Source of the DNA: a virus
Taxonomy: Duplodnaviria > Caudoviricetes
Length of the DNA stretch: 64,000 nt
Virus record (IMG/VR): IMGVR_UViG_3300021431_004083
Coordinates: 96,001-160,000 of that record
Strand: one strand, 5' to 3'
Numbering within the stretch: the stretch's first letter is position 1; each line of letters opens with the position of its first letter. The position numbers and the translations under genes are program-made. Positions 5,398 through 28,750 of the stretch are shown here, one piece after another. The notes under the pieces are model-generated. The model ran no database searches and was not told the origin of the DNA. It was given only the letters and a program-made list of their open reading frames with translations.

Positions 5398-5468
5398 GTA
5401 AAAATCACCAAAACCTTTCTTCCCGAACGCGGGATATAAATTTTTCACAAACCTAACGGTTCTCTAAC

Positions 5469-5497
5469 AATATAACACATCGAAAAAGAAAATGCAA
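5469..5497 (-). promoter_or_regulatory. Sigma-A promoter for the major pilin
   Basis: TTGCAT-17 nt-TATATT with extended TG. Confidence 0.7.
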
Positions 5498-5599
5498 TAG
5501 TTTATTCACAAAAAAGTAAATAAAATTGTAAAAATCCCCATTCGACATTGAAACAGACGCCGTGCCGTATACAAGACACGGCGTCCATTATCAAAAATA

Positions 5600-14703: not shown

Positions 14704-15129
14704 ATGCGAAAAAGCTTTGTTGTCCCGAAAGACATTGTCTCCACAGGAAAACAAAGACTGCTGTTATACAGAAACAGCAAGCTCGTCAAACAAACGACGA
14801 ATGAAAATTGTCGTAAAGAAATGCGAAAATTGATTATCGCCGCCATGAGAAAATTACCTGAGGACGATTTGACAACCATCATATCAAAAATCGAACGCCA
14901 ACAGAAACTAAAACACAAAGGTACTCCTAAAAATAAAAAGGAGCAAATTCAACTGTTGACAACGCTTCTGAAGTTCGCGGAAAAGAAGACACGTTTTCGC
15001 ATCTCGATTTTAATAGAAGAACAAAATCAAGTTGAAATCAACTATGGGAGATATAGCGCGTTTGCCAATATAAACGGTAAAACAACAAACTTATCAATAA
15101 AACCCGCACAAAAAAGGAGGATTTTATAA
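14704..15129 (+). CDS. Hypothetical basic protein
   Basis: ORF with gaggtg RBS, coupled to the next gene. Confidence 0.55.
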   Translation: MRKSFVVPKDIVSTGKQRLLLYRNSKLVKQTTNENCRKEMRKLIIAAMRKLPEDDLTTIISKIERQQKLKHKGTPKNKKEQIQLLTTLLKFAEKKTRFRISILIEEQNQVEINYGRYSAFANINGKTTNLSIKPAQKRRIL

Positions 15130-15521
15130 TGTTGTATAGAGTTATTATCGCAGGAAGCAGAGACTTCAACGATATCGACAAACTGGCGAAATCGTGTGAC
15201 AGTATCATCGGCGGTTTCACAACCGATGACAAAGACGCCGAAGTCGTCATCATCTCAGGCGGTGCTCGCGGAGCTGACAAACTCGCTGAGAAATATGCGC
15301 TCGCAAAAGGCTACAAAAACGAAATCATGCCTGCCGATTGGAACAGATTCGGAAAAAGCGCAGGGTATATCCGAAACACGGCAATGGCGCAACAGGCAAC
15401 ACGTCGAAACGGTATTGGCTGCTTGATTGCGTTTTGGGACGGTGAATCAAAAGGCACAAAGCACATGATTGATACCGCCAATAAAAAGAAAATGAAAGTC
15501 GCTGTTGTCCGATTCCGATAA
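15129..15521 (+). CDS. SLOG-family (DUF2493/YspA-like) protein
   Basis: IIAGSRDF, ISGGARGAD, AGYIRN and FWDGESKGT motifs. Confidence 0.9.
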   Translation: MLYRVIIAGSRDFNDIDKLAKSCDSIIGGFTTDDKDAEVVIISGGARGADKLAEKYALAKGYKNEIMPADWNRFGKSAGYIRNTAMAQQATRRNGIGCLIAFWDGESKGTKHMIDTANKKKMKVAVVRFR

Positions 15522-15555
15522 CAGCGACACATCTATAAAAAGGAGGATATATAAT

Positions 15556-16011
15556 ATGATAGAACGGTACTACAAAGACCTGACAATCATACCACCGAGC
15601 GCAGACGCAGTATGCGTAACAACAAACGGTATGACAAAAAACAATGGTGATGCTGTGATGGGCGCAGGTATTGCGAGAAGTTTCGCTGAAAAGTATCCGT
15701 CGTTACCGAAAATACTCGGAGAAAAACTGCGAACCGAAGGAAACCACGTACACGACATCACAACAACCACAAACACATACAAAGAGCAACACATCGTAAG
15801 TTTCCCGACAAAACATCACTGGAAAAACGATTCCGATATTGCACTGATAAAACAATCAGCTGAAGAACTCAAAGCCCTCGCAGACAAAAACAACTGGACT
15901 TGTATTTATCTGCCGAGACCGGGCTTTGGTTGCGGAAGACTATCATGGTTAGACGTAAAACCTGTTATAGCGAACATACTCGACGATAGATTCATCGTCA
16001 CATGGCGCTAA
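15556..16011 (+). CDS. Macrodomain (ADP-ribose binding/processing) protein
   Basis: TTNG...MGAGIA, FPTKHHW and PRPGFGCGRL motifs; aggagg RBS. Confidence 0.88.
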   Translation: MIERYYKDLTIIPPSADAVCVTTNGMTKNNGDAVMGAGIARSFAEKYPSLPKILGEKLRTEGNHVHDITTTTNTYKEQHIVSFPTKHHWKNDSDIALIKQSAEELKALADKNNWTCIYLPRPGFGCGRLSWLDVKPVIANILDDRFIVTWR

Positions 16012-16091
16012 AAAATAAGGACAAAACATCTGGAGAGTTGTATTAATGTAAACGTAAAAGCTACGAAAAGTTCTTTCGTAGCTTTATATTT

Positions 16092-16162
16092 CCGTTATTA
16101 ATGTAAAAGGCAGCATAATCCGCAAAACGGAAAAGTGTCGGGTTCAAATCCCACATAACGGT
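16092..16162 (+). ncRNA. Degenerate tRNA-like element
   Basis: Acceptor CCGTTAT/ATAACGG; D-arm ATGT/GCAT with GG; T-loop TTCAAAT; anticodon arm TCCG-CAAAA-CGGA (5-nt loop); no CCA. Confidence 0.65.
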
Positions 16163-16348
16163 AGTTTGAGAGCTCACAACTCAAATCAAAACCATCATCA
16201 AAAAGTGAGTGAGAGACACCCGGTATAACCATGATGAGGTATGGATGTTGGCACTCGTGAACAGAACGGGAGATATCTAATGTAAATAGTATTCTACCAA
16301 TACTATCCGACATATATTCAAAACACAGCAAAGAAAAGAGGCAACAAT

Positions 16349-16762
16349 ATGACCGAGAACAAGAAAATCATGACATTTGACGACGTTCCCATCGAAGTCG
16401 GCAAAACATATTACCTCGCCGCAACAACGCAGTCGTATATCAAAGAGGTCAAGGTCGAAAGAATCGACTTCGAAGACGAAACCGTTGTCTGCTTTGTAGA
16501 TTTAACAGGTCTCAATTTCAGGAAAGAATTCTTATCACCGAACGACCTGTTTGCAAACAAAGAAACAGCGGCACACGAATGGGACAAACGCTGTCAGCTC
16601 CGTCTGAAGGCCTATGCAGAAAAGCTCGGGGCAAACACAAAGCTCATTCTGAACTTCCCTTTCTGCGAAGGGTTTTTCATGGACTACTGCAAACGGCAGG
16701 CATACAGAAACGCAGTCATCAAAACTTTCGGCTTCGACCCGCTTGACATCAAAGAGGTCTGA
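16349..16762 (+). CDS. Hypothetical protein
   Basis: 137-aa ORF with RBS. Confidence 0.7.
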   Translation: MTENKKIMTFDDVPIEVGKTYYLAATTQSYIKEVKVERIDFEDETVVCFVDLTGLNFRKEFLSPNDLFANKETAAHEWDKRCQLRLKAYAEKLGANTKLILNFPFCEGFFMDYCKRQAYRNAVIKTFGFDPLDIKEV

Positions 16763-16766
16763 TGGT

Positions 16767-17048
16767 ATGATAAAACAAATCGCATTTTACGGCAGCAGCA
16801 CAAACGCGACTGCATACTTCAAAGACGATGAACAACTCTGGACAGACTACTTTGACATAGAAGTACAGAGATATCATAAACTGGTTGGCTTCGCATATAA
16901 ACGAAACCCCAGATTCGGAATCACAAACGTGAAACCTACGCCATATAAAACCGCGTTTGACATCGATACATTACAAGCATCTGAAAAGATTCCCGAAAAT
17001 CTCGGCAACATACCATATGTCGTGTTTGAATGCGAATGCTACAGTTAA
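16767..17048 (+). CDS. Hypothetical protein
   Basis: ATG after gagg RBS, in series with the previous ORF. Confidence 0.65.
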   Translation: MIKQIAFYGSSTNATAYFKDDEQLWTDYFDIEVQRYHKLVGFAYKRNPRFGITNVKPTPYKTAFDIDTLQASEKIPENLGNIPYVVFECECYS

Positions 17049-17134
17049 ACAAAGAAATACTATGAGCTTGAAAAGAAGGTAAGTGGGCAAATATGCTGCG
17101 CAAACCATCCCAGTAAAGCTCATATGTTGAGTAT

Positions 17135-17219
17135 GCAGGTGTGGTGGAACAGGCAGACACAAAGGTCTCAAAAACCTTCGGAGAAATCCGTGCGGGTTCA
17201 AGTCCCGCCACCTGCACCA
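17135..17219 (+). tRNA. tRNA-Leu(CAA)
   Basis: Full cloverleaf with long variable arm; AAGGT-CTCAAAA-ACCTT; GGTTCAAGTCC; encoded CCA. Confidence 0.96.
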
Positions 17220-17220
17220 C

Positions 17221-17302
17221 GTAGGCTTAAGCTTTGACAGGGGCGGTCACGCCTTGTTGTCCAACACGCGTCACGAACAACAACGGCAACCGTCCCGCCT
17301 AC
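17221..17302 (+). ncRNA. Structured small RNA immediately 3' of tRNA-Leu
   Basis: GTAGGC/GCCTAC, GGGGCGGT/ACCGTCCC and TTGTTGT/ACAACAA helices. Confidence 0.5.
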
Positions 17303-17320
17303 AACCAAAAAAATATATAT

Positions 17321-17480
17321 GCGGGCTCTGAAAGCAAGGTTCAGCTTCCTTTGGAGAAGTGAGAAGTAAAAACGGCATGATGAAAGGTATCGCAACCATG
17401 GCTCTACGATATTTAGTAATTGGATGAGTCTCTCTCACCGACACAAAGGTTTGGCGGTTCGAATCCGGCAGTCCGTACCG
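17321..17480 (+). ncRNA. tRNA-like RNA (TTG anticodon arm) with a 92-nt insertion in the variable region
   Basis: Acceptor GCGGGCT/AGTCCGT; D-arm; GCTTC-CTTTGGA-GAAGT; T-arm GGCGG-TTCGAAT-CCGGC at 17453-17469; ends ACCG. Confidence 0.7.
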
Positions 17481-17791
17481 TACATATCAAAACCTGATGA
17501 TACACCGTAACAATAACACAAACGGCGGAAAAATATTTCGACCGAAATCCTTAATGTATCACAAACCGTAAGCAGCCCCGCACACAGAAACAACCTGTTC
17601 TCTGAACAATCCCATAAGCGCCACACCATGCTGTACAGAAAAAATATCTGTGACAAGCCTCGAATAATGACAGACGCTTAAGTAATATTTCGGATTGACA
17701 GACCACAAACGTAACAGACACGGTAATCACTTACAAGCGCCGCCCAGTTTAAGGTCTGGGCGGACACACAATTAAAAAAAGAGGTGCCGAT

Positions 17792-17968
17792 ATGGCGAAA
17801 AACGACCACGAATTTGAACACTGCTTTCGTGACCGTGAAAAAAACAATGCTATTTGCGAATGTCCTGTAGGGATGAGCCCTTCTGAAGAAAAAGCTCTAC
17901 TGAAAAGACACCCCTCATGGTATCGTTCAACCGTTGAATACGACAAAAACGGTTTCCTGAAAAGGTAA
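17792..17968 (+). CDS. Small hypothetical protein (58 aa)
   Basis: gaggtg RBS and ATG; below the ORF-track length cut-off. Confidence 0.6.
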   Translation: MAKNDHEFEHCFRDREKNNAICECPVGMSPSEEKALLKRHPSWYRSTVEYDKNGFLKR

Positions 17969-17990
17969 AACGTGCAAGGAGGTCATACGC

Positions 17991-18182
17991 ATGAAATACG
18001 TAAGAAAATGTCCGATTTGCGGACGCAAAGCGACACGTCGCACCGGAAAATTAAGTTTCTGCGATGACCACCACAAAACAGTGCGTCGTCACAAAGCTCG
18101 CAAGGTGTACAAAGAGGTTCTTGTGTACTCTCTCGGTCCCGGTTGCGGTATTTATGGTTGGCGTGAACTCAACGTACACTAA
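17991..18182 (+). CDS. Small zinc-finger-like protein
   Basis: ggagg RBS; CPIC...FCDDH. Confidence 0.7.
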   Translation: MKYVRKCPICGRKATRRTGKLSFCDDHHKTVRRHKARKVYKEVLVYSLGPGCGIYGWRELNVH

Positions 18183-18197
18183 AAGGGGGACTCAGAA

Positions 18198-18497
18198 ATG
18201 CTTGAAACATTAATGAACAGCCCATTAACCCAAATCGCCTTGATGACGCTGATTATATTATTAATCAACAAACCCATAACAGAAATAACACAATACATAA
18301 TCGTAAAACAAGAGATGAAAATACTGAGCCGAATACTGAGCGATAAAAACGCAAGCGAAGCAAAAAAAGAATATGCGATTGAAACGTTCAGGCAAAACAT
18401 ATACAACATAATTGAACAGCCCGAAAGTCGAGCTCAGGAACGATACATCGGAAGACTCATTGATAAATGTATCGAAATTGCAAAACAAAAAACATAA
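18198..18497 (+). CDS. Hypothetical protein with N-terminal hydrophobic segment
   Basis: 99-aa ORF with G-rich RBS. Confidence 0.65.
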   Translation: MLETLMNSPLTQIALMTLIILLINKPITEITQYIIVKQEMKILSRILSDKNASEAKKEYAIETFRQNIYNIIEQPESRAQERYIGRLIDKCIEIAKQKT

Positions 18498-18571
18498 TAT
18501 CAAATAGCTAACTTCCTATATATTGGTTTCTGTTTTAACCGTCGAGGGTGCGGTATATCACCCTCACACTA

Positions 18572-18647
18572 TGGGTAGTAGCCAAGCGGTAAGGCAACGG
18601 ACTTTGACTCCGTCATCTCGTGGGTTCGAACCCCGCCTGCCCAGCCA
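18572..18647 (+). tRNA. tRNA-Gln(TTG)
   Basis: Cloverleaf; ACGGA-CTTTGAC-TCCGT; U1-A72; GCCA end. Confidence 0.96.
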
Positions 18648-18780
18648 AAGGAGCTCTTTCTGTCAGCTCCTTCACCGATAAGTCGGCTATAAAAAAACTC
18701 GACAGAACATGTCAGACAGTTGGCGGACCACTTCCTCGTTCCGTCAGCTGTTCTGTACAATAAAAAAGGAGGGCTCGAAC

Positions 18781-19269
18781 ATGCCTGTCTTATTTGTAAA
18801 AAATACCGTAACAGAAAAAACAATCGAGTCCATACTCAAACCTATCAATAGCTTCTGGACATACACAAGCCTTACGGATGTTGTGCAATCCAACGATAGC
18901 AGACTCGACAAAGCGCGTGATTTCGCGGCTATCACCTTCACAGACGAAAAAGATTGCGCTTTCATCGCGGACATGCTGATGGCAGAAAACATACAGGTGT
19001 TCCTGACCTTACCCGTCACCGCCGAAAGCACATACACAAACATATCAAACGACAAAAAAGCCAATATATCCTACTGGGACCATCTCGATAATATTGCCGA
19101 GGACTTCGTACAAAACCTTTTGTATGAATGCTATGACAAAGATACACATGCACAAACACCTTTGTCAGAAGAAGACAGGCAATACGTCCTGAAAGCGGCA
19201 CTTGAAGCCGCCATTGAAAAACTGGAAGACCTCAAAAAGGAATTCCCGTTTATGGATATTCCGTCCTAA
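18781..19269 (+). CDS. Hypothetical acidic protein
   Basis: ATG after aaggagg RBS. Confidence 0.7.
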   Translation: MPVLFVKNTVTEKTIESILKPINSFWTYTSLTDVVQSNDSRLDKARDFAAITFTDEKDCAFIADMLMAENIQVFLTLPVTAESTYTNISNDKKANISYWDHLDNIAEDFVQNLLYECYDKDTHAQTPLSEEDRQYVLKAALEAAIEKLEDLKKEFPFMDIPS

Positions 19270-19276
19270 AAAACAT

Positions 19277-19548
19277 ACGAGGGATGTAGGCTTAGAGGCA
19301 GCCATCATCTAAGGAGTAAGACGCCGGGATTGCGTGTAGTGAAGGTCGGGGAAACCGACACAGCGTGCACGCGGTGGTGATGAGAACACTTAAAGCGATA
19401 ACGTGTCGCTAAACGGTATCATCACCATTGTCAATTCGTCGCTGACGAGCACGGCATAGCAGTAATGAGCGACTGTAATCTATCTGCTATTGCGACACAC
19501 CCTACAGTCGGTAAGAGTCTTTTTGGCGTAACAGCACACCTCGTACCA
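19277..19548 (+). ncRNA. 23S rRNA H43-H44 (L11-binding / GTPase-associated centre) mimic RNA with a 208-nt insertion and ACCA 3' end
   Basis: GGATGTAGGCTTAGAGGCAGCCATCATCTAAGGAGT...GCGTAACAGCACAC matches 23S positions ~1055-1104; closed by ACGAGG/CCTCGT + ACCA; no other rRNA sequence in the flanks. Confidence 0.88.
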
Positions 19549-19572
19549 TTATTTCCAAAAAGGAAGGTATTC

Positions 19573-19830
19573 ATGACACGTACTGTGACATATACATGTG
19601 AAGTCTGCGGACGTCAAAGCGGAAGCGCAATTGACATTATAAAATGCGAATGCTCCCATCTTGGAATAACCGTAGACCAACTAAAAGAATGGAAGCTGCT
19701 GAAAGGCGCTGTCCGAATGACAAAAACACATGCAACAACAGAGCAAGTTATTAAAGACGCCATCAAAAATCTGAATGACTTCGAAACAAAACATCAGCTC
19801 ACAGGAAAAACTGTACCCAACCTATGTTAA
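19573..19830 (+). CDS. Small Zn-finger protein (paralog of 23898-24179)
   Basis: YTCEVCG...DIIKCECSHL; aggaagg RBS. Confidence 0.75.
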   Translation: MTRTVTYTCEVCGRQSGSAIDIIKCECSHLGITVDQLKEWKLLKGAVRMTKTHATTEQVIKDAIKNLNDFETKHQLTGKTVPNLC

Positions 19831-19852
19831 CAGAAAAAGGAGGAATTTTCGA

Positions 19853-20035
19853 ATGCCCTACACAGCACCGATTGAAAAAGACCATATCCTCGACGTCACA
19901 AACCGTTTTCTCAATGCCAACGAAAACAGCAGCGACGCACAGGCGCTCATCCTCGACATGGCGTCTGAAATCCTCAACGAATCCGTTGACCAAATTATTG
20001 ACGACCTCGATGATGACGGTGACGTAGATACCTAA
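19853..20035 (+). CDS. Small acidic protein
   Basis: aaggagg RBS; D-rich C-terminus. Confidence 0.7.
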   Translation: MPYTAPIEKDHILDVTNRFLNANENSSDAQALILDMASEILNESVDQIIDDLDDDGDVDT

Positions 20036-20050
20036 AAACAAAAAAAATAT

Positions 20051-20470
20051 GGGCCTGCTTGGTTTCGACAGGCTATACGAAAGAATCTATCACGCACGTG
20101 TCCCATCGCGTACGGGGAAACAAAAAATAAACGACACTAATACTGTTGTACTTCATCCCGCATTCTCCGCTGCTTGCGCTCGCGCTGCAGCCTGATTGCA
20201 TTACGGATACCAAAACGGCACGTCCGCTGTTTGATAAGGCCTGAGGTTCGAAGATAAACAGCACACAGTTTCCTGTTTCTGCAAAAAACAGGTGGTGGAG
20301 TGATGAAGAAACCCTTCATCCCTAAACGGCTGATTGCGCCGTACGTCAATTCGTAAAGAAAACGCCGTCCGTCTGACACGGTAATAATCTAAAAGCTCAG
20401 ACTATTGCGTAAGTATGATATTTTCAAGTAGATAGTTTGGACACGGGTTCGACTCCCGTCAGGTCCACCA
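20051..20470 (+). ncRNA. ssrA: tmRNA; predicted tag (A)DTNTVVLHPAFSAACARAAA*
   Basis: GGGCCTG/CAGGTCC acceptor with G3.U70; GGTTTCGAC; T-arm GGGTTCGACTCCC; ACCA end; ATAAAC-GAC resume context, tag frame 20133-20195. Confidence 0.95.
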
Positions 20471-20478
20471 CGCTGATA

Positions 20479-20501
20479 AACCCCGTCACGATGACGGGGT
20501 T
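20479..20501 (+). terminator. Hairpin after tmRNA
   Basis: AACCCCGTCA-cga-TGACGGGGTT; weak U-tract. Confidence 0.5.
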
Positions 20502-20651
20502 CAAAATATATCAACAGTCAATCAAACACAACATTCACACAAAATCTCTACTATGATAAACAAAACAGAAAGTAGAGCTAAAGAAGATGTTCTTAAGAGC
20601 ACAAACAATCTCTGCTAAAAAAAGAAGAGAAAAAGAAAGGATGTTTTCAAT

Positions 20652-21203
20652 ATGCCGTTAGAAGCAATCCGTCGCATCGACGACCTCGGACGAATTGTCG
20701 TTCCGAAAGATATAAGAAAAAGATTAAACCTCGAAGAGGGAGACACCGTATCCCTCGAAACAACCAACGACGCGCTTATCATCAAAAAACATTCCGTGAT
20801 AGGCGAAATCACGAAAAAGGCACAGGCTTGTATCGACGCACTGTCGTTCTCAACAAAGAGTATCGTCATTGCTACTGACAAAAACATCATCACAAACGTA
20901 GCAGGCTTATCAAAACGGAATCTCCTTGAGATGAGCATCTCCGACAGGCTCAAAGAGCTCATCAAAAATAACAAAAAGGGATACCGTCACACACCGACAG
21001 ATGAACCTATGCCCGTGATGAAAAACTCTGCAATGCCTTACGTCAAAGCAACGGCTGTAATCTACGATAAAGCGCTGCTGCCCGTCGGGTGCGTGGCAAT
21101 CATCACGTCAAATAAAGCGGAACTGTCGTTGGGTATCACACCCGCCGAAGATGCGTTACTGAACAACACCGCTGACACCATCACACGGCTCATAAGGGAC
21201 TAA
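20652..21203 (+). CDS. spoVT: SpoVT-like regulator (AbrB DNA-binding domain + GAF-like C-domain)
   Basis: RRIDDLGRIVVPKDIRKRL...IIKKHSVIGEI...TDKNIITNVAG; 183 aa, matching SpoVT length. Confidence 0.85.
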   Translation: MPLEAIRRIDDLGRIVVPKDIRKRLNLEEGDTVSLETTNDALIIKKHSVIGEITKKAQACIDALSFSTKSIVIATDKNIITNVAGLSKRNLLEMSISDRLKELIKNNKKGYRHTPTDEPMPVMKNSAMPYVKATAVIYDKALLPVGCVAIITSNKAELSLGITPAEDALLNNTADTITRLIRD

Positions 21204-21215
21204 AAGGAGACAACA

Positions 21216-21380
21216 ATGCTAACTGAAATCACCATCAGAATCAACACTGATACCGGTGACTGTTCTATCAAGGAACAAAACGCCGAAACTGTAACAACAA
21301 AGCTCGACACGTCATCCCTTGAAGCGACTGCGTGGGACGCGGGTGAAGCGCTGAAAGATTACATCGAAGGGTTGAACTGA
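21216..21380 (+). CDS. Small hypothetical protein (54 aa)
   Basis: aaggag RBS and ATG. Confidence 0.55.
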   Translation: MLTEITIRINTDTGDCSIKEQNAETVTTKLDTSSLEATAWDAGEALKDYIEGLN

Positions 21381-21381
21381 A

Positions 21382-21561
21382 ATGCCCGACAACTACTACA
21401 GCAGCAAAAGAAAAAACCCTCACAAGTACAAAATGATGTACCTGTTGGAACGAATCAGAGATTCCGAAACATGGCCGAAAGGTGCCCGCATATGGGCATT
21501 CCAACCTTGTACAGGATGGCGCGTCATAGATAAGCATTATGTCCTGAAAACAAGCCTTTAA
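21382..21561 (+). CDS. Small hypothetical protein (59 aa)
   Basis: Fills the gap between two ORFs in the same orientation. Confidence 0.45.
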   Translation: MPDNYYSSKRKNPHKYKMMYLLERIRDSETWPKGARIWAFQPCTGWRVIDKHYVLKTSL

Positions 21562-21577
21562 AGGAGAAAACTCCGGA

Positions 21578-21946
21578 ATGACCATCAACATCAACAACTA
21601 CGCCGAACTGTTCACAGCTTTGTGCATTCTTGCCGTAGGCGTAATCATCGCAACCGTCTGTGAAACATTTCTTTTACTATCCAACATTCTCAAAATCAAA
21701 GAAAGACTCAACAACGAAACGCTGCACTACTGCCCGAAGTGCGACAAGCTTCAACACACCAAAATTATCAAAATAACAGAGACACGCTGTATCAACAGCA
21801 AAGAAAACTGCAGAACTATAACACTGCCGGTTGCAGTTCGTGTCTGTGAAAAATGCGAAACGGAAATCTTTGACCGTCGGTTAAAAGAAGAAGCCGACTT
21901 TGTTTTCAACAAAAAGTTCAAAGAACGACCGTCTACAGAAGATTAA
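21578..21946 (+). CDS. Membrane-anchored zinc-ribbon protein
   Basis: N-terminal TM; CPKC...CEKC. Confidence 0.7.
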   Translation: MTININNYAELFTALCILAVGVIIATVCETFLLLSNILKIKERLNNETLHYCPKCDKLQHTKIIKITETRCINSKENCRTITLPVAVRVCEKCETEIFDRRLKEEADFVFNKKFKERPSTED

Positions 21947-21961
21947 CAAAAGGAGAAAATC

Positions 21962-22171
21962 ATGCCTGTAAATATCGAAAGTCTCACACTGGGCGAGTTC
22001 AGAGAACTGACAAAAAACTTACCGGACGACGTAAAAATCGTGATTACGTCAGAATCAGATTCCGACAAAGCATTGCCTGTGATTGTATATCCATTTGAAA
22101 CAAGTATCGACAACAATGGATTTTTCCTGCTGTCGCAAAACTGTAACGAAAGTATCAACTTCGAATCATAA
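21962..22171 (+). CDS. Hypothetical protein
   Basis: aaggag RBS; 69 aa. Confidence 0.65.
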   Translation: MPVNIESLTLGEFRELTKNLPDDVKIVITSESDSDKALPVIVYPFETSIDNNGFFLLSQNCNESINFES

Positions 22172-22207
22172 TACAAAAACACCAACAACCAAAAAATCTT
22201 TTAAATA

Positions 22208-22243
22208 TAATAGCCACCCTTTTCATAGGGTGGCTATTTTTTT
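22208..22243. terminator. Terminator between convergent genes
   Basis: AATAGCCACCCT-tttcat-AGGGTGGCTATT + T-run. Confidence 0.85.
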
Positions 22244-22246
22244 CTC

Positions 22247-23764
22247 CTACAACTGTTTTAAATCGTACAAGCTATATAAAACCTCTACAGAATTCCCATT
22301 CAACCGAGATTCTACAAAATCGGGAACTGACATTCCGATGATATAACGCTGAATGTATGTAGCATCGACTGAATCCGCGTTACCGTCGCCATCCACATCA
22401 CCGAGAATATCAGTATAATCAACTTCGTTCCTCACAAAAGGCAATTCCATTCCCACAAGATATCTATGTAAACATGTTACGTCAAGAATATTGACAACAC
22501 CATCAAAATTAACGTCGCCGTAAAGCACCTGTCTCACTTCCATACAGGGAATGGCGCGGCGTTTGCAGTACGAGATGATATACGAAGCGTTCTCTTTGGT
22601 GACAACTGTCAAATCAGACATACCATCGAATGCGTTTTCATGCAGATACGTGATTGTGTCGGGAAGCACAAGCTCCTGCAGGTTCGGGCAATACACAAAA
22701 CCATCTGCGGCAACAAACGAAATAGAAGAATCGACAGAAACACGTTTCAAGTTCGAACAATTAAAAAACAAATGATCGCGAATCGACGGTATACGTTCAA
22801 AATGCACTGTTTCCAACAAAGGACAATCCTTAAAGATATAATAACCCGGACCACCATACATAGAACCGCCGCTCTCATAACGAATAACACCGGCGAACGA
22901 AACAGAACGCAAACTGCTGCAATTCTCAAAAGCATAATTGCCGAGCTTGAAAACATCGGTCTTTGCCGTAAACGTCTCAAGACTTGAACAACCGGAAAAA
23001 GCGAAATTACCGATATGTTCAACAAAATCAGACATCACGGACTTCAAACTTCTACAATTAGCGAACGCTGAATCACCAATACTGCTGCCGCAATCAAAAG
23101 GTATATGCTCCAAAACAAAACAGTCACGAAAAGCGTTGTCCCCAATAAAAGAACACTTAGGACTTTCGACGTAAATGGACGTTAAATTCTCGCAAGACGA
23201 AAACAAACCATAATCGATATAACGAATAGACTTGAAACGAACCGTCTTTAGCGAAGTACAACCACTAAAAGCATAACGCCCAAAATTACAATCTGATGAA
23301 GAAGCATCAAAAAGCTCCAAATGAGAACAACCGTGAAACGCATAATCACCGACGTCAGATACAAAATCTGTATTAGTTACACGCACTAACGAAGAGCATC
23401 CGTCAAATGCGCTTCTCCCAATTGACGTCACACTACAGGAATCAGGGAGCTGAACATCCAATACATTCACAAAATCAGCAAAGGCTGAATCACCTATATG
23501 CGTGACATCTCCTGTAATTTTAATATGACGCACATCAGGCGCATGCTCATACCACACAGGAAATTCGCCCCACGTACAATCATGCATGGCGCCGGAACCG
23601 TTTATAATCAATTCCCCATCTTCTGTAACATGCCATGTAAAACCATCCTCGCTAAAAGAACCGTCTGTACTCGTTTCGGAAGTTTCGGCAAAACAAACCA
23701 AAGTACCCAAACTGAATACAAAAATACCGACAATCAAAAACGTGCAAAAAAATCTCTTAAACAT
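22247..23764 (-). CDS. BspA-type leucine-rich-repeat surface protein with C-terminal type-I dockerin
   Basis: Signal peptide (MFKRFF...; the ORF track starts at 23782); many IGxxAFxxCxxL repeats; GDVNFDGVVNILD and GDVDGDGNADSVDAT duplicated Ca-binding loops. Confidence 0.92.
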   Translation of the reverse strand: MFKRFFCTFLIVGIFVFSLGTLVCFAETSETSTDGSFSEDGFTWHVTEDGELIINGSGAMHDCTWGEFPVWYEHAPDVRHIKITGDVTHIGDSAFADFVNVLDVQLPDSCSVTSIGRSAFDGCSSLVRVTNTDFVSDVGDYAFHGCSHLELFDASSSDCNFGRYAFSGCTSLKTVRFKSIRYIDYGLFSSCENLTSIYVESPKCSFIGDNAFRDCFVLEHIPFDCGSSIGDSAFANCRSLKSVMSDFVEHIGNFAFSGCSSLETFTAKTDVFKLGNYAFENCSSLRSVSFAGVIRYESGGSMYGGPGYYIFKDCPLLETVHFERIPSIRDHLFFNCSNLKRVSVDSSISFVAADGFVYCPNLQELVLPDTITYLHENAFDGMSDLTVVTKENASYIISYCKRRAIPCMEVRQVLYGDVNFDGVVNILDVTCLHRYLVGMELPFVRNEVDYTDILGDVDGDGNADSVDATYIQRYIIGMSVPDFVESRLNGNSVEVLYSLYDLKQL

Positions 23765-23897
23765 ATAAAAGCCACCTTTCATAATAAATTATATAACAAT
23801 TATAACATAAAAACACAAACGACACAACAATAATCTGCGTAACGAAAAATCATCTGAAGAGTTGAAATCGTGTCAAGGAAAAGGAAGGAGCTCAACG

Positions 23898-24179
23898 TTG
23901 AAAACAAAAACAATCTACGTATGCGATGTCTGCGGAAAAGAAAGCGCTGAGTCTATGGATATAATCAAATGCGAATGCGCGCATCTGAACATCGATATCA
24001 GAACGTTGAATCGATGGAGAGACCTGAGAAAAACAGCTGCTGAAGCGGGCAAGACATACAGTATTCGACACAATGAAGAAACCGACGCTGCTTTCGACAA
24101 AGCTGTAGTAGAACTCGTAGAGTTCGAGAAAAAGCATTCTCTTATTGACAAAAAAGTACCTGAAATAAAACTGTTTTAA
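23898..24179 (+). CDS. Small Zn-finger protein (paralog of 19573-19830)
   Basis: YVCDVCG...DIIKCECAHL; TTG after aaggag. Confidence 0.75.
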   Translation: MKTKTIYVCDVCGKESAESMDIIKCECAHLNIDIRTLNRWRDLRKTAAEAGKTYSIRHNEETDAAFDKAVVELVEFEKKHSLIDKKVPEIKLF

Positions 24180-24190
24180 CTAAAAAACCA

Positions 24191-24219
24191 TTGACATGAA
24201 AACAGTTTTGTTATACAAT
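24191..24219 (+). promoter_or_regulatory. Sigma-A promoter for tRNA-Asn and downstream RNAs
   Basis: TTGACA-17 nt-TACAAT. Confidence 0.8.
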
Positions 24220-24262
24220 AAAAGAACGATTAAATCCGTCAAATGATGGATTTAATATATAT

Positions 24263-24338
24263 TCCTCCATAGCTCAGTCGGTAGAGCACTCGGCTGTTAA
24301 CCGAGTTGTCGTTGGTTCGAGTCCAACTGGGGGAGCCA
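24263..24338 (+). tRNA. tRNA-Asn(GTT)
   Basis: Cloverleaf; CTCGG-CTGTTAA-CCGAG; GCCA end. Confidence 0.97.
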
Positions 24339-24339
24339 G

Positions 24340-24910
24340 TCCTACACAACACATGGTGTAGGAGAAACAGTACGACATACACCTGTAAACTTAAGCAGGA
24401 GGATTGCATAACGTTCACGATGTATCTGTGCTGTTTATCGCCTCCGAAAAGAGGTCGAATAACCTTACGAAATGGGCGCAGTTGACGCCCGCGTGCCGCG
24501 CAGGTCTACCCTGGGACCTCCGCTTCAAGGGCACGGAAAGTCGGGCGAGCCGAAACAATAATCCGTCCGTACGTCACCGAACGTAAAATCGGCAAAGGGT
24601 CAGACAGCTTAGTGTGTATTGTATAAAGACGCCTCGGCGGCAAGCGCGAAATACGCCTGTGTGCCACGCGCAACCTATACAATGGGTGCTGTACACGCAG
24701 GATAGAAAGAGGTTGAGTCCTGCATCATCTCTATTTTTTGAATTCCGGAACAACGACTACGACGGATATCACTGTTACTCGCATATCAGGGAATGTGAAT
24801 AACAGCAGATGGAAATACGGAAAAATCCATCCTCCTGACCGTGACCGTTAGCAGGAGCTGCGTATGGCTCACCGCAAGAAAACAAACATACGCCACCGAT
24901 GGTGACTTAA
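24340..24910 (+). ncRNA. Candidate large structured ncRNA(s) 3' of tRNA-Asn
   Basis: No credible ORF; many helices (AAACAGTAC/GTGCTGTTT, CGTGCC/GGCACG, TTGTATA/TATACAA) and H-type pseudoknots at 24697-24732 and 24860-24905. Confidence 0.6.
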
Positions 24911-24952
24911 AACGTAAAAACGTTTTATCATAAAAGAAAGGATTTATCAAGA

Positions 24953-25534
24953 ATGTTTTGTCCCAATTGCAGAAAACACGTGACAGATGAAAAATTCTGT
25001 CCCAGATGCGGAACAGACCTTTCCCCCTACAGGGAAGAAAGAGACGCGCAAAATCAAATGTCAGCACAAACACAGCCTACGGAAAGCCAAAACGAAACCA
25101 TCGACATGGACAATATCGAACAAAGCGATATCGAACAAAACAAAGGTATAGCTTGGCTCTCCTACTTTGGACTGCTCGTACTCGTACCGATGCTCGCAAG
25201 GAAAACATCAAAATATTGCGCGCATCATGTCAAACAAGGTTGGACACTGTTCGCGACCAACATTGCGTACTTCGCTGTTACGCAAATCCTTCTGGCAATT
25301 ATCGGAGCCATCTTCCCGGGACACGTCTCCTATTTCCTGATTCGTATGCCAAGCGCTGTATATGTAATTTTCAGCATCATATTCAACCTCGGATACATCT
25401 TCTTCACAGTCCTCGGAATCATGGGAATCGTTTACGCGGCAACAGGCAAAACAAAACGTTTACCTGTTATCGGACAAATCCCGTGGATTTCAAAACTCGT
25501 AGATAACTTCTACAAAAATTATATCACAGAATAA
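24953..25534 (+). CDS. Zinc-ribbon + DUF4870-like membrane protein
   Basis: MFCPNC...FCPRCG; LSYFGLLVLVP...HVKQG...LPVIG. Confidence 0.85.
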   Translation: MFCPNCRKHVTDEKFCPRCGTDLSPYREERDAQNQMSAQTQPTESQNETIDMDNIEQSDIEQNKGIAWLSYFGLLVLVPMLARKTSKYCAHHVKQGWTLFATNIAYFAVTQILLAIIGAIFPGHVSYFLIRMPSAVYVIFSIIFNLGYIFFTVLGIMGIVYAATGKTKRLPVIGQIPWISKLVDNFYKNYITE

Positions 25535-25565
25535 ACGATATCAAAACGCATTGCGTTTTAATATA

Positions 25566-26227
25566 CCAATATCGCAAAGCCGAATAACAACAGTTCGGTC
25601 AGCGATATAAGCTTCGTCGGGTAAGCTTACGGGTGGCGTCACCCATAAAGTCAGTCCAACATCTCTTTTATGATGGCCTCTTCTGTAACATCGGACGACA
25701 ACCCGAAACCACCTTACTCTCAACAATAGAGAACTAAGGGAACGGGAGCGCTCATGCGCAGAGCGGTCCTTGCCAACAGAACGACCGTTTGTGTAAACAA
25801 TTCATCCTATGATTGCAACGATTGCTTCGTGTAACCCACGGCAATCAACACAGGAACATTGCGAAACATGCTTTACCCACGAAAGGTTAACTCTCCTTTT
25901 GTCGCTTTTACAGGATACCGCACACAATCATAAAGAATTGCAATAGCAGGCTCGCAACAGCGAGCGGCGGTATATGAAAAAGTTACGCAATCACGGCCAA
26001 ATTGCGAAATGACAAACCTTTCTATGCTGAACACAAACAAATCTCGGGACAGCGTCCCTCGGAAGCGTTTTGCCCCAAACGTTGCAATTGCGGCAAACCC
26101 CGAAACGCGCCGGTACAAAGACGGCTACAACATATAAGCATGGTGTAAGCCGCCGATATTCGAAGACAAAAACACCAAGACCCTGTGAGGTGTGCTCGCG
26201 AAACATATGTTCGCCTGCGGGTCTTAT
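25566..26227 (+). ncRNA. Candidate large structured ncRNA (~660 nt) 5' of tRNA-Thr
   Basis: No credible ORF; dense helices (ATATCGC/GCGATAT, AAGACCC/GGGTCTT) and a pseudoknot at 26122-26177. Confidence 0.55.
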
Positions 26228-26229
26228 CT

Positions 26230-26305
26230 GCCGATGTAGCTCAGTTGATAGAGCAGCTGATTTGTAATCAGCAGGTCGTGAGTTTGAGCCTCACCGTCGG
26301 CTCCA
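26230..26305 (+). tRNA. tRNA-Thr(TGT) with non-canonical elbow (D-loop GA, T-loop TTT)
   Basis: GCTGA-TTTGTAA-TCAGC; GTGAG-TTTGAGC-CTCAC; TCCA end. Confidence 0.9.
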
Positions 26306-26309
26306 TCTG

Positions 26310-27106
26310 TCGCCATCTAAGTGTCGTCGGAACACTTGTTGTGTGACCGCCCGTATGAAACGACGGGAACCGTAAAAAAACGGTAGAACCTAAGTCTGTT
26401 GGTTCCGAGGAAAGTTTAGGACAGACAATCCGACAATTCATTATCCATTCTTATTCCTTTATTAAACCGCTCGCACCATGAAATCGAAAACGAATTCAAG
26501 CCGGGTAGCGAGTAAAACCCAATCGGGATATTTGCGTGGAGTTGACAACAACGCTGAAACGAAATGTGGAGTTGATAGCAACGCTGAAGCGAAATGTCAC
26601 ATGGTTGGGGATGTCATTTTACATCAATGCGGTTATTGACAAAGAGAGTAACAAGGCTGATAAAAGTTACTCCGCTCGGACACCAACGCAAGCCCGAGAC
26701 CGCCTTCCGAGAGTGAGTCGCCGCCGGACCATCGACCTGACGGCGACCAAGGGTGGGGCTGTAGTCCTTCAGACCGTAAAGGACAGGAACAGCAAACCCT
26801 CATTGCGGTTTCCTCAAGAATATAAACCGCTACCGTGGTACGGTCAAAACGCTTACGCCCTGAAAGAGCGTGCGCCAAAAGCGCGGGCGTGCATGTCACT
26901 TGGACAGATTAATGGGCAACATTGGTAGGCTTCTTTTAGGAGATAGTTGCCAACTGGAAAAGGACGTAATGACGTTTCCAGTCCAAGCCACCCGCAAAAG
27001 GGTTCTGAAACGGTGGCTTAGCAGAACCGAGAATGTATTCAGGCTTTGAAAGAATACTCGGCAGGTTTCTGAGATAGTTCAGTATAATTCCTATCGTAAG
27101 CCTTTC
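26310..27106 (+). ncRNA. Candidate large structured ncRNA(s) between tRNA-Thr and the tRNA-like element
   Basis: Pseudoknots at 26469-26520, 26717-26756 and 26985-27028; helices GAGTAAC/GTTACTC and ACTGGAAA/TTTCCAGT. Confidence 0.55.
26536..26597. repeat. 30-bp imperfect tandem duplication
   Basis: GTGGAGTTGA(C/T)A(A/G)CAACGCTGAA(A/G)CGAAAT x2. Confidence 0.85.
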
Positions 27107-27107
27107 A

Positions 27108-27181
27108 GGTTGCTTCGTTTAACAGGTAAGACGCGTATGCCTCAAAAGCGCGATTTGCGGGTTCGAATCCTGCAGCAACCC
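27108..27181 (+). ncRNA. Aberrant tRNA-like element (CAA loop on a short-variable-loop body)
   Basis: Acceptor GGTTGCT/AGCAACC; T-arm GCGGG-TTCGAAT-CCTGC; bulged anticodon stem with CTCAAAA loop; no CCA. Confidence 0.7.
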
Positions 27182-27189
27182 TTCAAAAA

Positions 27190-27740
27190 AGAAGCGATAT
27201 CTCATCGGCTAACTTCACTGATGCGCATGTCAGAGCGCTTCAGATATTCGACGAGCATACATCCTATGTTCCGAAATTGCTTGAACCCAAACGGAAACGG
27301 GCAATAAGAAAACAAACTCAACATAGGTTCGCGATAGGAAGCCACACTGACACCGAGCTGTCCTGTCACGATAGGTCAAAGATGAGAAACAAGTTTAAGT
27401 TGAGCGATGTCTACACACATACGTGTCAAAGCCGACTTGATGCAATGCTGACGCGCGAAGCAACATTAAAGTGCGGCAGGTCTGTCGATAAAATACGACC
27501 GACCATACAGATGTAAGTGCTCACGGTAATACCGTGGAGCCGGGCGTACCCACGACGGCAAATTCTATACCTAACGGAAAATTCCGTGGATACAACATGC
27601 CCTCAAACCTCAAAAAGCTTGTTTGAAACCGAAGTCGCCATAGCAAACACAAAGCTACACAGGCTACACAAATGCCGGACCGAATGTATGCGGTTTTCCG
27701 GTTTTCTCGCAAAAAACCTGCTTATATAATAAGCAGGCTT
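27190..27740 (+). ncRNA. Candidate structured ncRNA region before tRNA-Met
   Basis: No credible ORF; hairpins GCTCACGGTA/TACCGTGGAGC, GCCGGA/TCCGGT and CCTGCTTA/TAAGCAGG. Confidence 0.45.
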
Positions 27741-27746
27741 ACATAT

Positions 27747-27823
27747 CGCGGGGTGGAGCAGTTCGGCAGCTCGTTTGGTTCATGACCAAAAGGTCGGGGG
27801 TTCAAATCCCCCTCCCGCAACCA
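27747..27823 (+). tRNA. Initiator-type tRNA-Met(CAT) with altered anticodon arm
   Basis: CGCGGGG 5' end with C1:A72 mismatch; TTTGG-TTCATGA-CCAAA; ACCA end. Confidence 0.93.
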
Positions 27824-27902
27824 CTTCCGATTGCTGTGTGTTTTGAAACTCGGAAGCTTAAGCGCCTGATATATATCATATCGGGCACCCCTCCTCATAA
27901 AA

Positions 27903-27949
27903 AAGAAGCCCTTTCAGGTAACAACCTGTTAGGGCTTCTTTTTTTTTTT
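27903..27949. terminator. Bidirectional terminator ending the RNA island
   Basis: AAGAAGCCCT...AGGGCTTCTT with flanking A-run and T-run. Confidence 0.85.
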
Positions 27950-27958
27950 CATCTATCG

Positions 27959-28750
27959 TCAACAAAAAGACAAATCGAAATACGGTAAACGACGTTTCCT
28001 CAAAGCGAACAGCTTTTTTCTGATACACACGGTATAAAAAACAATACCAAAGATAACAAGAAGCACACAAGTCGCACAAATAATACCCAAAGCAACAGGA
28101 TGCAACTCAGGCTCGTAAACAAAAAGATACGCGCTGAAATTAAAAAGGCTGTGCAAGAACACAACGAAAGTAAAACTGTTCGTCAACATATAAGCGTAAC
28201 AGAGAATAATGCTCAGACAAAACGTCATAATCATATGCAGCAGAGAAGGGTGCATCACAGCAAACAAAATCGACGTCGCGAAAATAGCGGCAGGTGCTCC
28301 GATACTGTTACGCAAAAACGGAAAAAAGAGACCGCGCATAATCGCCTCTTCGCCGAGAGGAGCAAAAACCAAAGCGAGAAGAAGACCAAGTGCGTCAGGG
28401 AACTCCGACATCGCCTTTGTATACTCCTCAAAGCTTGCGCTGTATAATAAATCAGGTAATGCAAACATCAAAAAGAAAGTCATGATACGAATCAAAAATA
28501 CCATCACAACAGGAAATCTAAAAGATAAATCCTCGCTGAAATCATCAGACACACTATCTGACAGCAAAACGTGATGACGGTCGGATATGCGAACCATCCC
28601 GTAGAAGATAAACAGTGAGAGATTCAACAAAATCGTCGGCCAAACAACCGAACTGAAAATCTGATACAGAAGCAGCGTAACGAGGACATAAAAAACAACG
28701 CATGCCCCTGCGCAAAAAAGACCGTATTTGTAATAATAACGCGACATCAC
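27959..28750 (-). CDS. CPBP (CAAX/Abi) family intramembrane metalloprotease
   Basis: APLGEEAIMRG, FAVMH and HSLFN motifs. Confidence 0.92.
   Translation of the reverse strand: MMSRYYYKYGLFCAGACVVFYVLVTLLLYQIFSSVVWPTILLNLSLFIFYGMVRISDRHHVLLSDSVSDDFSEDLSFRFPVVMVFLIRIMTFFLMFALPDLLYSASFEEYTKAMSEFPDALGLLLALVFAPLGEEAIMRGLFFPFLRNSIGAPAAIFATSILFAVMHPSLLHMIMTFCLSIILCYAYMLTNSFTFVVFLHSLFNFSAYLFVYEPELHPVALGIICATCVLLVIFGIVFYTVCIRKKLFALRKRRLPYFDLSFC

Follow-up and report, generated by a model that had tools for sequence, protein, structure and literature searches.

The stretch of DNA analysed here, referred to as the window, comprises 64,000 nucleotides (nt) and corresponds to bases 96001–160000 of a 251,549-base-pair (bp) IMG/VR virus record that has direct terminal repeats and is rated complete. 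On its plus strand, positions 19276–19548 hold an RNA that is predicted to fold as a self-closed copy of helices 43 and 44 (H43 and H44) of 23S ribosomal RNA (rRNA), the uL11-binding GTPase-associated centre (GAC), around an insert. This GAC mimic lies in an island of transfer RNAs (tRNAs), a transfer-messenger RNA (tmRNA), small protein genes and long blocks poor in open reading frames (ORFs). With a probability of roughly 0.6, the stretch is read as the translation-RNA region of a Firmicute jumbo phage, organised in two plus-strand units whose RNAs would be processed, with the GAC mimic acting as a decoy. Clusters of tRNA and tmRNA genes are ordinary in phages; a free-standing, phage-encoded copy of the uL11-binding domain is not. 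The mimic is the most valuable element of the island, and next to it come the conserved non-coding modules without known family in the second unit.

The GAC mimic and its family

19276–19548, plus strand: GAC-mimic RNA (local match to the large-subunit (LSU) rRNA model; match to the family model R1, introduced below)

The mimic is closed by a helix of its own, P1 (19276–19282 with 19539–19545; 7 bp, UACGAGG/CCUCGUA), which directly flanks the equivalents of G1055 and C1104, a feature that defines the family. The H43 copy (19284–19308) is followed by the counterparts of the 1082–1086 pair (19309 with 19313) and of G1087–U1090 (19314–19317). An insert of 204 nt then enters H44 after GAGU, is closed by helix P2 (19318–19322 with 19517–19521; AAGAC/GUCUU) and gives way to UUUGG, also a defining arrangement; the H44 tip occupies 19526–19535, and the letters CCA stand at 19546–19548. 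When the real 23S rRNA of contig L049 is taken as the reference, 30 of the 34 positions of 19284–19317 are identical to E. coli-type 23S nt 1057–1090, and 19526–19539 matches nt 1091–1104. A cmscan search of the mimic stretch alone aligned positions 1095–1146 (H43–H44) of the Rfam bacterial LSU model with 22.4 bits (E = 4e-5). The match covers those positions only and misses the gathering score of 50 bits that RF02541 sets for a genuine 23S rRNA; the rest of the island showed no further significant similarity to L049, which served as the rRNA-bearing control locus. An rRNA mimic had been proposed here in an original prediction made from the letters of this DNA, and both the LSU match and the 88.9-bit match to R1 confirm it.

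E. coli nt 1051–1108, formed by the top of H42, H43 and H44, are the 58-nt domain that binds thiostrepton and uL11, the latter through its C-terminal domain. The mimic shares with this domain the H43 hairpin and loop, the 1082–1086 pair and the H44 tip (G1091–C1100, C1092–G1099), and conserves U1060, A1088, G1071 and C1072 as well. It differs in being free-standing and phage-encoded, in having a private helix instead of H42, with no conservation at the uL10 site, in carrying a structured insert of 60–366 nt in H44 between 1090 and 1091, in replacing U1101 by an A that pairs with U1090, and in tolerating variation at A1067 and at 1095–1097.

Comparison with L180, a relative from an independent assembly that is 92–94% identical, showed that the mimic is 97% conserved, its eight differences being transitions. 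Four of these form two compensatory changes in helices of the predicted insert fold (19335 with 19369, 19397 with 19407). A search of the whole phage genome with R1 found a single copy.

The same RNA occurs in many other phages. A degenerate 27-nt pattern taken from the 5′ half matched 59 IMG/VR contigs, 58 of which share the split design, whereas only L049 continues as a true 23S rRNA. Since this pattern forced part of H43 to look invariant, a second search relied on the 3′ motif only and returned at least 118 contigs; the family comprises at least 89 distinct phage members. In an alignment of 39 members, 89.2% of the cells were paired, against 70% in shuffles, and the covariation score was 0.507, against 0.147 in shuffles (none of 500 reached it) and 0.08–0.19 in slid controls. 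Covariation was found at all ten pairs of P1 and all five pairs of P2, and the 1082–1086 pair appeared as U-A in 20 members and as C-G in 17. A covariance model built from 35 members from which the window copy was excluded (R1) recovered window 19274–19547 over its full length (model positions 1–181) with 88.9 bits (E = 2.4e-24). No description of such an RNA was found among Rfam families or in the literature.

An unbiased view of the 5′ half was obtained from 47 new, alignable members found through the 3′ motif alone. The pair 1058–1080 is extensively rewritten among them (G-C 14, U-A 14, A-U 13, U-G 3, C-G 2, G-U 1), and 1057–1081 (A-U 40, C-G 5) and 1082–1086 (U-A 26, C-G 11, A-U 9) also change as pairs. 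U1060, G1071, C1072, A1077 and U1090 are invariant, and U1060 together with A1088 is held in 45 of the 47. In crystal structures of the 58-nt domain, the invariant positions build the tertiary core, and A1067 and A1095 are exposed and contact elongation factors and thiostrepton. Of the 47 members, only 36 have retained A1067, and the H44 loop at 1095–1097 is variable too. Because the core positions are invariant while these contact bases vary, selection looks as if it were aimed at the fold and at whatever reads the fold, rather than at a full copy of the factor-contact surface. This unbiased profile, in which the core bases are kept while the factor-contact base A1067 varies, is one of the contributions of the present window.

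The mimic is associated with tRNA genes across the family. Among the 89 distinct members, tRNAs lie on the strand of the mimic in all 55 loci that bear tRNAs; a tRNA ends within 20 nt upstream of the mimic in 21 of the 89 and starts within 20 nt downstream in 16, which makes 37 junctions. There is no recurrent protein partner beside the mimic, the largest cluster of neighbouring proteins being present in 6 of 90 loci. The window contributes a copy that has two protein genes as its neighbours and is not part of a tRNA array, and that ends in ACCA; tRNA-Gln lies 624 nt upstream of it and the tmRNA 499 nt downstream, both of them on the plus strand.

Several carriers can be cultured, so that the function of the mimic is testable at the bench. 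R1 scored 89.8 bits in Cronobacter phage GAP32, where the mimic occupies an unannotated 293-nt gap between two hypothetical genes, and the 5′ motif is also present in Serratia phage BF, the Erwinia pEa_SNUABM phages and the Xanthomonas phages XaC1 and XbC2. In these phages the mimic lies in unannotated gaps or, in one record, beneath a hypothetical-protein call.

The inserts, 60–366 nt long and varied in sequence, are always closed by P2 at one place in H44. The subfamily with the insert type of the window has a covarying hairpin with a purine-rich loop. An insert motif, CACCCCG-NAAN-NGGUAAGG, is found just 5′ of the 3′ strand of P2 in one subfamily (L011, L028, L042, L046, L075, L078, L108, L115, L121 and L127; alignment columns about 190–220), and the window copy keeps only GGUAAG there. 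Eight other members (L072, L086, L091, L103, L104, L120, L125 and L126) diverge from the H43 consensus right after CAGCCA, an indication that there is a second insertion site or that the H43 3′ strand is built differently in them. A copy of the sarcin-ricin loop in the insert was considered and rejected: the island has no match to AGTACGAGAGGACC within three mismatches, and the exact AGTACGAGAGGACC is absent from every mimic among the loci examined. A 66-nt match in Paenibacillus phage Pd_22F (MZ092003.1, L064:2369–2434) was likewise rejected as a member. Because it lacks the insert and is followed about 1,592 nt downstream, at the true 23S spacing, by a sarcin-ricin-loop motif (L064:3961–3974), it is real rRNA DNA, which may be host DNA in the record.

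Two other explanations of the mimic have to be weighed. The 23S-like piece could be host rRNA DNA that was acquired by the phage or mis-assembled, and not an evolved RNA gene; the close identity of its H43 copy to real 23S would then be expected, and Pd_22F demonstrates that a true 23S fragment does occur in one public phage record. However, only about 50 nt are 23S-like, they are split by the insert, closed by a private helix that covaries in 39 members and not flanked by further 23S sequence. The differences from rRNA, GAGU at 1087–1090 and the A at 1101 pairing with U1090, are common to phages of unrelated hosts, a single one of the 59 contigs with the 5′ motif continues as real 23S, and the copy is conserved with compensatory changes in an independent assembly. 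This explanation is already contradicted and has a negligible chance of being right. It is distinctly unlikely that the GAC-like core is a scaffold for folding and stability, a nuclease-resistant clamp, with the insert as the working part and the imitation of the uL11 site as an incidental property. The diversity of inserts that are nevertheless always closed by a covarying P2 at one H44 site, the conserved and covarying hairpins that insert subfamilies have of their own and the variability of the factor-contact bases would all fit such a scaffold, but the near-identity of the core to rRNA far exceeds what a stable fold needs, and the invariance of about 30 core positions, whether the phage host is Gram-negative or Gram-positive, is easier to reconcile with a conserved cellular partner.

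The decoy reading thus holds that the mimic forms a compact tertiary domain as in 23S nt 1055–1104, with its own closing helix and a structured insert in H44. It most likely acts off the ribosome, as a putative decoy or sponge that would bind host uL11 or else a factor or defence enzyme recognising the uL11-binding domain; uL11 is the first candidate partner. Since neither a uL11 gene nor an SmpB gene was found in the phage, both the mimic and the tmRNA must rely on proteins of the host. If the mimic does bind uL11 or divert a factor that reads the GAC, it would represent a new viral route against translation or the stringent response. Imitation of rRNA outside the ribosome is established for the autoregulatory mRNA leaders that carry L1, L10 and S8 sites, which resemble the mimic in presenting a ribosomal-protein binding site on an extra-ribosomal RNA. 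Those leaders are cellular, act in cis on their own operon and are only loosely rRNA-like, whereas the mimic is phage-encoded, near-identical to rRNA in its core and unlinked to any ribosomal-protein gene. A comparable sequestration, of bS21, has been proposed for OLE RNA (the OLE-RpsU pocket hypothesis; PMC12286853).

tRNAs, tmRNA and tRNA-shaped elements

RNA genes were called where ARAGORN and Rfam agreed, the Rfam thresholds being 29 bits for RF00005 (tRNA) and 47 bits for RF00023 (tmRNA). These genes and the tRNA-shaped elements are the following:

17135–17219, plus strand: tRNA-Leu (CAA); ARAGORN, Rfam 56 bits
18572–18647, plus strand: tRNA-Gln (TTG); ARAGORN, Rfam 58.3 bits
20051–20470, plus strand: tmRNA; ARAGORN, Rfam RF00023 84.5 bits, full length (model positions 1–374)
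24263–24338, plus strand: tRNA-Asn (GTT); ARAGORN, Rfam 70.1 bits
26230–26305, plus strand: tRNA-Thr (TGT); ARAGORN, Rfam 66.8 bits
27747–27823, plus strand: tRNA-Met (CAT); ARAGORN, Rfam 57.5 bits
27108–27181, plus strand: tRNA-shaped element; ARAGORN, Rfam tRNA model 38.7 bits
17220–17483, plus strand: conserved non-coding stretch, a hairpin after tRNA-Leu and then the tRNA-shaped RNA 17321–17483
16093–16163, plus strand: candidate degenerate tRNA-shaped element, read by eye only

Clustering on the plus strand, as originally predicted, holds for the whole 251.5-kb genome: ARAGORN placed all of its tRNA-type genes and the tmRNA within one 10.7-kb run (17135–27823) and found none outside the island. 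Six calls belong to RF00005, with 38.7–70.1 bits, including the weak one at 27108–27181. The tmRNA, whose tag has 20 residues and ends in AAA according to ARAGORN, is 99.3% identical in L180. Clusters of tRNA and tmRNA genes are well known in huge phages, and the island is like them in combining same-strand tRNAs with a tmRNA in a jumbo genome. It differs in that few tRNAs (five or six) are spread over 10.7 kb, unlike the tight packing in the distant relatives L067 and L068, and in that they are parted by long conserved spacers, tRNA-shaped RNAs that are not tRNAs, and protein genes.

The element at 27108–27181 has weak D and anticodon stems, no CCA and, despite its Leu anticodon (CAA), no long variable arm. 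Its homologue in L176 has an identical T arm, a rewritten acceptor stem and an unrelated anticodon arm, with AAA inside runs of U and A. The element thus does not look like a decoding tRNA, its anticodon arm being unconserved and its identity elements not fitting its anticodon. Only the acceptor/T-arm half is kept, and because RNase P, RNase Z and the CCA-adding enzyme all recognise this half, the element fits a processing handle rather than a decoder. The expectation that tRNA as well as rRNA modules are reused in the island is therefore confirmed for this element and for the GAC mimic. For the other tRNA-like decoys that had been proposed, at 16093–16163 and 17321–17483, the tRNA model gave no match at E ≤ 10.

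The second of these is a more conserved sequence than its surroundings. Identity to L180 is 97.0% over 17220–17483 and 98.2% over 17321–17483, compared with about 90% in the flanking genes and spacer. A cloverleaf is seen by eye and in the minimum-energy fold of 17321–17483, where about 90 nt replace the anticodon loop; the acceptor, D and T arms pair, and the three substitutions relative to L180 are all unpaired. Its fold has a z-score of +0.5, which speaks against a structured RNA. The standard ARAGORN scan found nothing here, and an intron-bearing tRNA was rejected, as the intron mode (17300–17500) found nothing either. The surrounding block 17220–17791 folds as a whole no better than chance (z = −0.5). 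At 16093–16163, a 7-bp acceptor-like pairing (CCGTTAT/ATAACGG), a T-loop TTCAAAT and a T-arm repeat can be read, and ARAGORN made no call in its standard or its intron-mode scan of the island.

The ORF-poor blocks and the two proposed transcription units

The original prediction saw ORF-free, helix-rich blocks between the tRNAs of the whole island. This description is accurate for 24.3–27.8 kb only, where the tRNAs are parted by four ORF-poor blocks (24339–24952, 25538–26229, 26306–27107 and 27182–27746; 2,673 nt in total) whose plus-strand folds have z-scores of −4.2, −4.9, −3.1 and −4.8 against shuffles. It fails for 16.3–24.2 kb, mostly small protein genes, with about 14 credible protein ORFs at 16349–24179. 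The features of the second unit and the signals that would delimit the two units are:

22209–22238, plus strand: terminator-like hairpin closing the first unit (12-bp stem followed by a T-run)
24191–24219, plus strand: promoter-like site TTGACA-17-TACAAT before tRNA-Asn (11 of 12 consensus matches)
24339–24952, plus strand: block 1, candidate conserved non-coding RNA or leader (conservation with L171)
25535–25790, plus strand: block 2a, conserved structured module (82% identical to L171)
25791–26229, plus strand: block 2b, lineage-specific module (absent in L171)
26306–27107, plus strand: block 3, variable spacer (large absences in relatives)
27182–27746, plus strand: block 4, spacer with conserved islands (length and islands kept in L176)
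27906–27950, no single strand: hairpin GAAGCCCT/AGGGCTTC followed by 11 T, likely a two-way terminator closing the second unit

The block sequences belong to no known family. Rfam 15, including GOLLD and ROOL, gave no match at E ≤ 10 in 24330–27750, so that a GOLLD- or ROOL-like identity is not borne out; at E ≤ 1, the matches in 15000–29000 were limited to the tRNAs, the tmRNA and weak hits to unrelated families that stayed below threshold, with none to any theta/HDV-like, hammerhead, twister or other ribozyme that Rfam 15 may contain. Neighbouring proteins and one DNA pattern led to relatives of the region. Relatives of the membrane protein encoded between blocks 1 and 2 were absent from IMG/VR, the block 1 pattern was unmatched in IMG/VR and in metagenome contigs of the JGI, and the block 4 pattern, without matches in IMG/VR, had two in the metagenome collection, L189 among them. 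Relatives found through the RecJ-like protein (L065–L068) were rejected for this comparison, being too distant (36–41% identity) and without block similarity.

Conservation is unequal among the blocks. Block 1 (614 nt) is 91.8% identical to L171, whereas the adjacent gene is 74.6% identical in DNA and 73% in protein; its ORFs are broken by indels of 1, 2, 3 and 4 nt between relatives, and coding potential was rejected. Its variable columns avoid predicted stems, 16 of 51 being paired compared with 52% of all columns, and its 3′ end is a hairpin that immediately precedes the ribosome-binding site for 24953–25534. Substitutions also avoid the predicted stems of block 2a, where both partners of four pairs were exchanged with pairing preserved, no pair was broken and none of 500 shuffles reached the score. 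Block 2b (about 25791–26224, about 435 nt) is reduced to a hairpin of about 35 nt in L171. In block 3, L171 matches 26306–26427 with about 95% identity; a tandem duplication of 30 nt is confirmed at 26536–26595, and it belongs to a 204-nt segment (26437–26640) that is missing from L189, a strain that is 97% identical. In L176 block 3 is almost wholly missing, and block 4 measures 577 nt compared with 565 nt in the window, its conserved islands including 30 nt at about 27188–27218 and 27550–27585, although the neighbouring protease is only 56% identical there. Since some modules are conserved and others absent in close relatives, the blocks are a mosaic that combines modules under constraint with others that change fast and can be lost, and none of them is one ornate RNA in the manner of GOLLD or ROOL. 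Like GOLLD and ROOL, the blocks are several hundred nucleotides of helix-rich non-coding sequence beside or between phage tRNA genes; they differ in being such a mosaic and in being found only in close relatives of the phage. Transfer RNAs are sometimes located inside the linkers of GOLLD (PMC12286853).

According to the decoy reading, the first unit (about 16.3–22.2 kb) would comprise small phage genes, tRNA-Leu, the tRNA-shaped RNA, tRNA-Gln, the GAC mimic and the tmRNA, and the second (about 24.2–27.95 kb) the promoter, tRNA-Asn, block 1, the membrane-protein gene, block 2, tRNA-Thr, block 3, the tRNA-shaped element, block 4, tRNA-Met and the terminator. The second unit would be made as one precursor; no credible plus-strand terminator-like site was found between 24.2 and 27.9 kb, a lone match inside tRNA-Thr looking spurious. 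The closing hairpin at 27906–27950 was read in the sequence and lies outside the terminator scan, whose loop limit is 8. As the four blocks directly abut tRNAs or the tRNA-shaped element, cuts by host RNase P and RNase Z at these sites could free them as separate RNAs. The window thereby adds a second putative operon, with conserved non-coding modules of no known family set between tRNAs and a tRNA-shaped handle.

Several observations weigh against this reading. The 2,673 nt of the blocks do fold above shuffles, but equally so on the minus strand, where the z-scores of blocks 1–4 are −6.4, −5.2, −4.2 and −2.6. These are as good or better in three of the four blocks, and the alignment folds are similar both ways. 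Strand assignment by folding was therefore abandoned: the thermodynamics describe helix-rich DNA without indicating a strand, and the plus strand of the block RNAs follows from context only. Promoter-like sites, which are consensus matches only, are no more frequent in the region than in shuffles. Block 1 varies so little that its covariation does not reach significance (its score was reached in 53 of 500 shuffles); the block comparisons rest on two lineages; and relatives can do without parts of the blocks that measure 204, about 435 and about 800 nt. As to the mimic, release guided by tRNAs does not obviously apply to the window copy, placed as it is between protein genes, and an ACCA tail is ruled out as a family feature by the heterogeneous tails of the members. 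Since A1067 and 1095–1097 are variable, the mimic is hardly a plain copy of the surface that binds factors.

An alternative account of the blocks is that they are leaders, trailers and spacers of an operon of tRNAs and an mRNA, made up of cis-acting hairpins and fast-evolving filler and not of free-standing RNAs; the hairpins, as attenuators, RNase sites or stabilisers, would control the membrane-protein gene and tRNA maturation. The terminal hairpin of block 1 is conserved directly before the ribosome-binding site of that gene, and its top pair covaries; the 5′ end of block 2 is a terminator-like hairpin right after the stop codon of the same gene; and the account is also favoured by the lack of any Rfam match and by the parts that L189 (26437–26640), L171 (about 435 nt) and L176 (about 800 nt) do not have. 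This account is possible, yet on balance unlikely: block 1 extends over 614 nt and is conserved above the very gene to be regulated, block 4 keeps its length and several sequence islands beside a protein of 56% identity, and substitutions avoid predicted stems throughout blocks 1 and 2a. A bolder version of the decoy reading, to be taken as tentative, makes the whole island a set of non-coding RNA tools that are released by processing and directed against the ribosome of the host, in which the mimic would capture uL11 or divert a factor and the blocks would be further mimics or sponges. Its precursor would yield tRNAs, the tmRNA, tRNA-shaped handles and several new structured RNAs; 24339–24952, 25535–25790, 17220–17483 and the islands of 27182–27746 would be mimics or sponges of translation components, and the mimic would alter factor recruitment or the RelA-dependent stringent response during infection. 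The analysis shows the genes with their strand and clustering, the membership and covariation of the mimic in its family and the unequal conservation of the blocks; we infer the translation-manipulating role, co-transcription, processing, binding partners and host effect.

Protein genes and genomic setting

The protein genes of the island are the following:

16349–17048, plus strand: two small protein genes (137 and 101 amino acids), kept as genes in L180, L183 and L186
17792–18497, plus strand: three small protein ORFs (58, 63 and 99 amino acids), the first two called as genes in L180
18781–19269, plus strand: protein gene of no known family (162 amino acids from the likely start), called as a 162-amino-acid gene in L180
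19573–20035, plus strand: two small protein genes, the first Cys-rich, called as genes in L180
20652–22171, plus strand: SpoVT/AbrB-type regulator (20652–21203; Pfam MazE_antitoxin, SpoVT_C) and four small ORFs
22247–23782, minus strand: gene for a protein with leucine-rich repeats (LRR, BspA-type) and a dockerin (Pfam LRR_5 2.5e-55, Dockerin_1 1.2e-11)
24953–25534, plus strand: zinc-ribbon membrane protein gene (weak Pfam zinc-ribbon matches)

Most of the ORFs at 16349–24179 are called as genes in L180, though the small ORFs of the first unit have no PHROG match. The proteins matching the 137- and 101-amino-acid products are 90% and 75% identical in L180, L183 and L186; the 162-amino-acid protein matches neither Pfam nor PHROG. 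Between tRNA-Leu and tRNA-Gln there is a variable slot, in which the 99-amino-acid ORF of the window (18198–18497) is replaced in L180 by a gene of 353 amino acids (L180:11407–12468). The small Cys-rich proteins at 19573–19830 and 23862–24179 (plus strand) are paralogous, with 71% identity over 66 nt of DNA; the former directly follows the GAC mimic and the latter directly precedes the promoter-like site of the second unit.

The LRR-dockerin gene lies inside the island and is outside its RNA set. Its product has a type I dockerin and a signal-peptide-like start. This suggests a cellulosome-bearing host, to whose cellulosomes the phage protein may perhaps attach. The membrane protein has 27 homologues, some with a DUF4870/MamF-type domain. 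The dockerin and the naming of membrane-protein homologues after Oscillospiraceae point to Clostridia; the source is a gut or rumen jumbo phage, which probably infects a species of the Oscillospiraceae or Ruminococcaceae that bears cellulosomes. Directly upstream of the island, genes for a YspA-type SLOG protein and a Macro-domain protein (window 15129–16011, plus strand) are possible counter-defence genes, because such domains handle nucleotide-derived signals or ADP-ribose. The downstream flank encodes a CAAX-type protease and a RecJ-like protein on the minus strand.

Cultured phages showed no similarity to the island beyond the size of a tRNA. The distant relatives L067 and L068 have tightly packed arrays of 9 and 23 tRNAs (L067:17346–19110, L068:17346–19918) at the same position relative to the RecJ-like gene, whose protein is 36% identical; neither long spacers nor the mimic were present within the 20 kb examined. 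In L182, the module formed by the 101-amino-acid gene, tRNA-Leu, the conserved tRNA-shaped RNA and two small genes (window 16631–18184) is found at 4414–5921, in another context, next to TrkH, TrkA, epimerase and phosphoesterase genes, and this placement points to mosaic exchange of the tRNA-Leu module.

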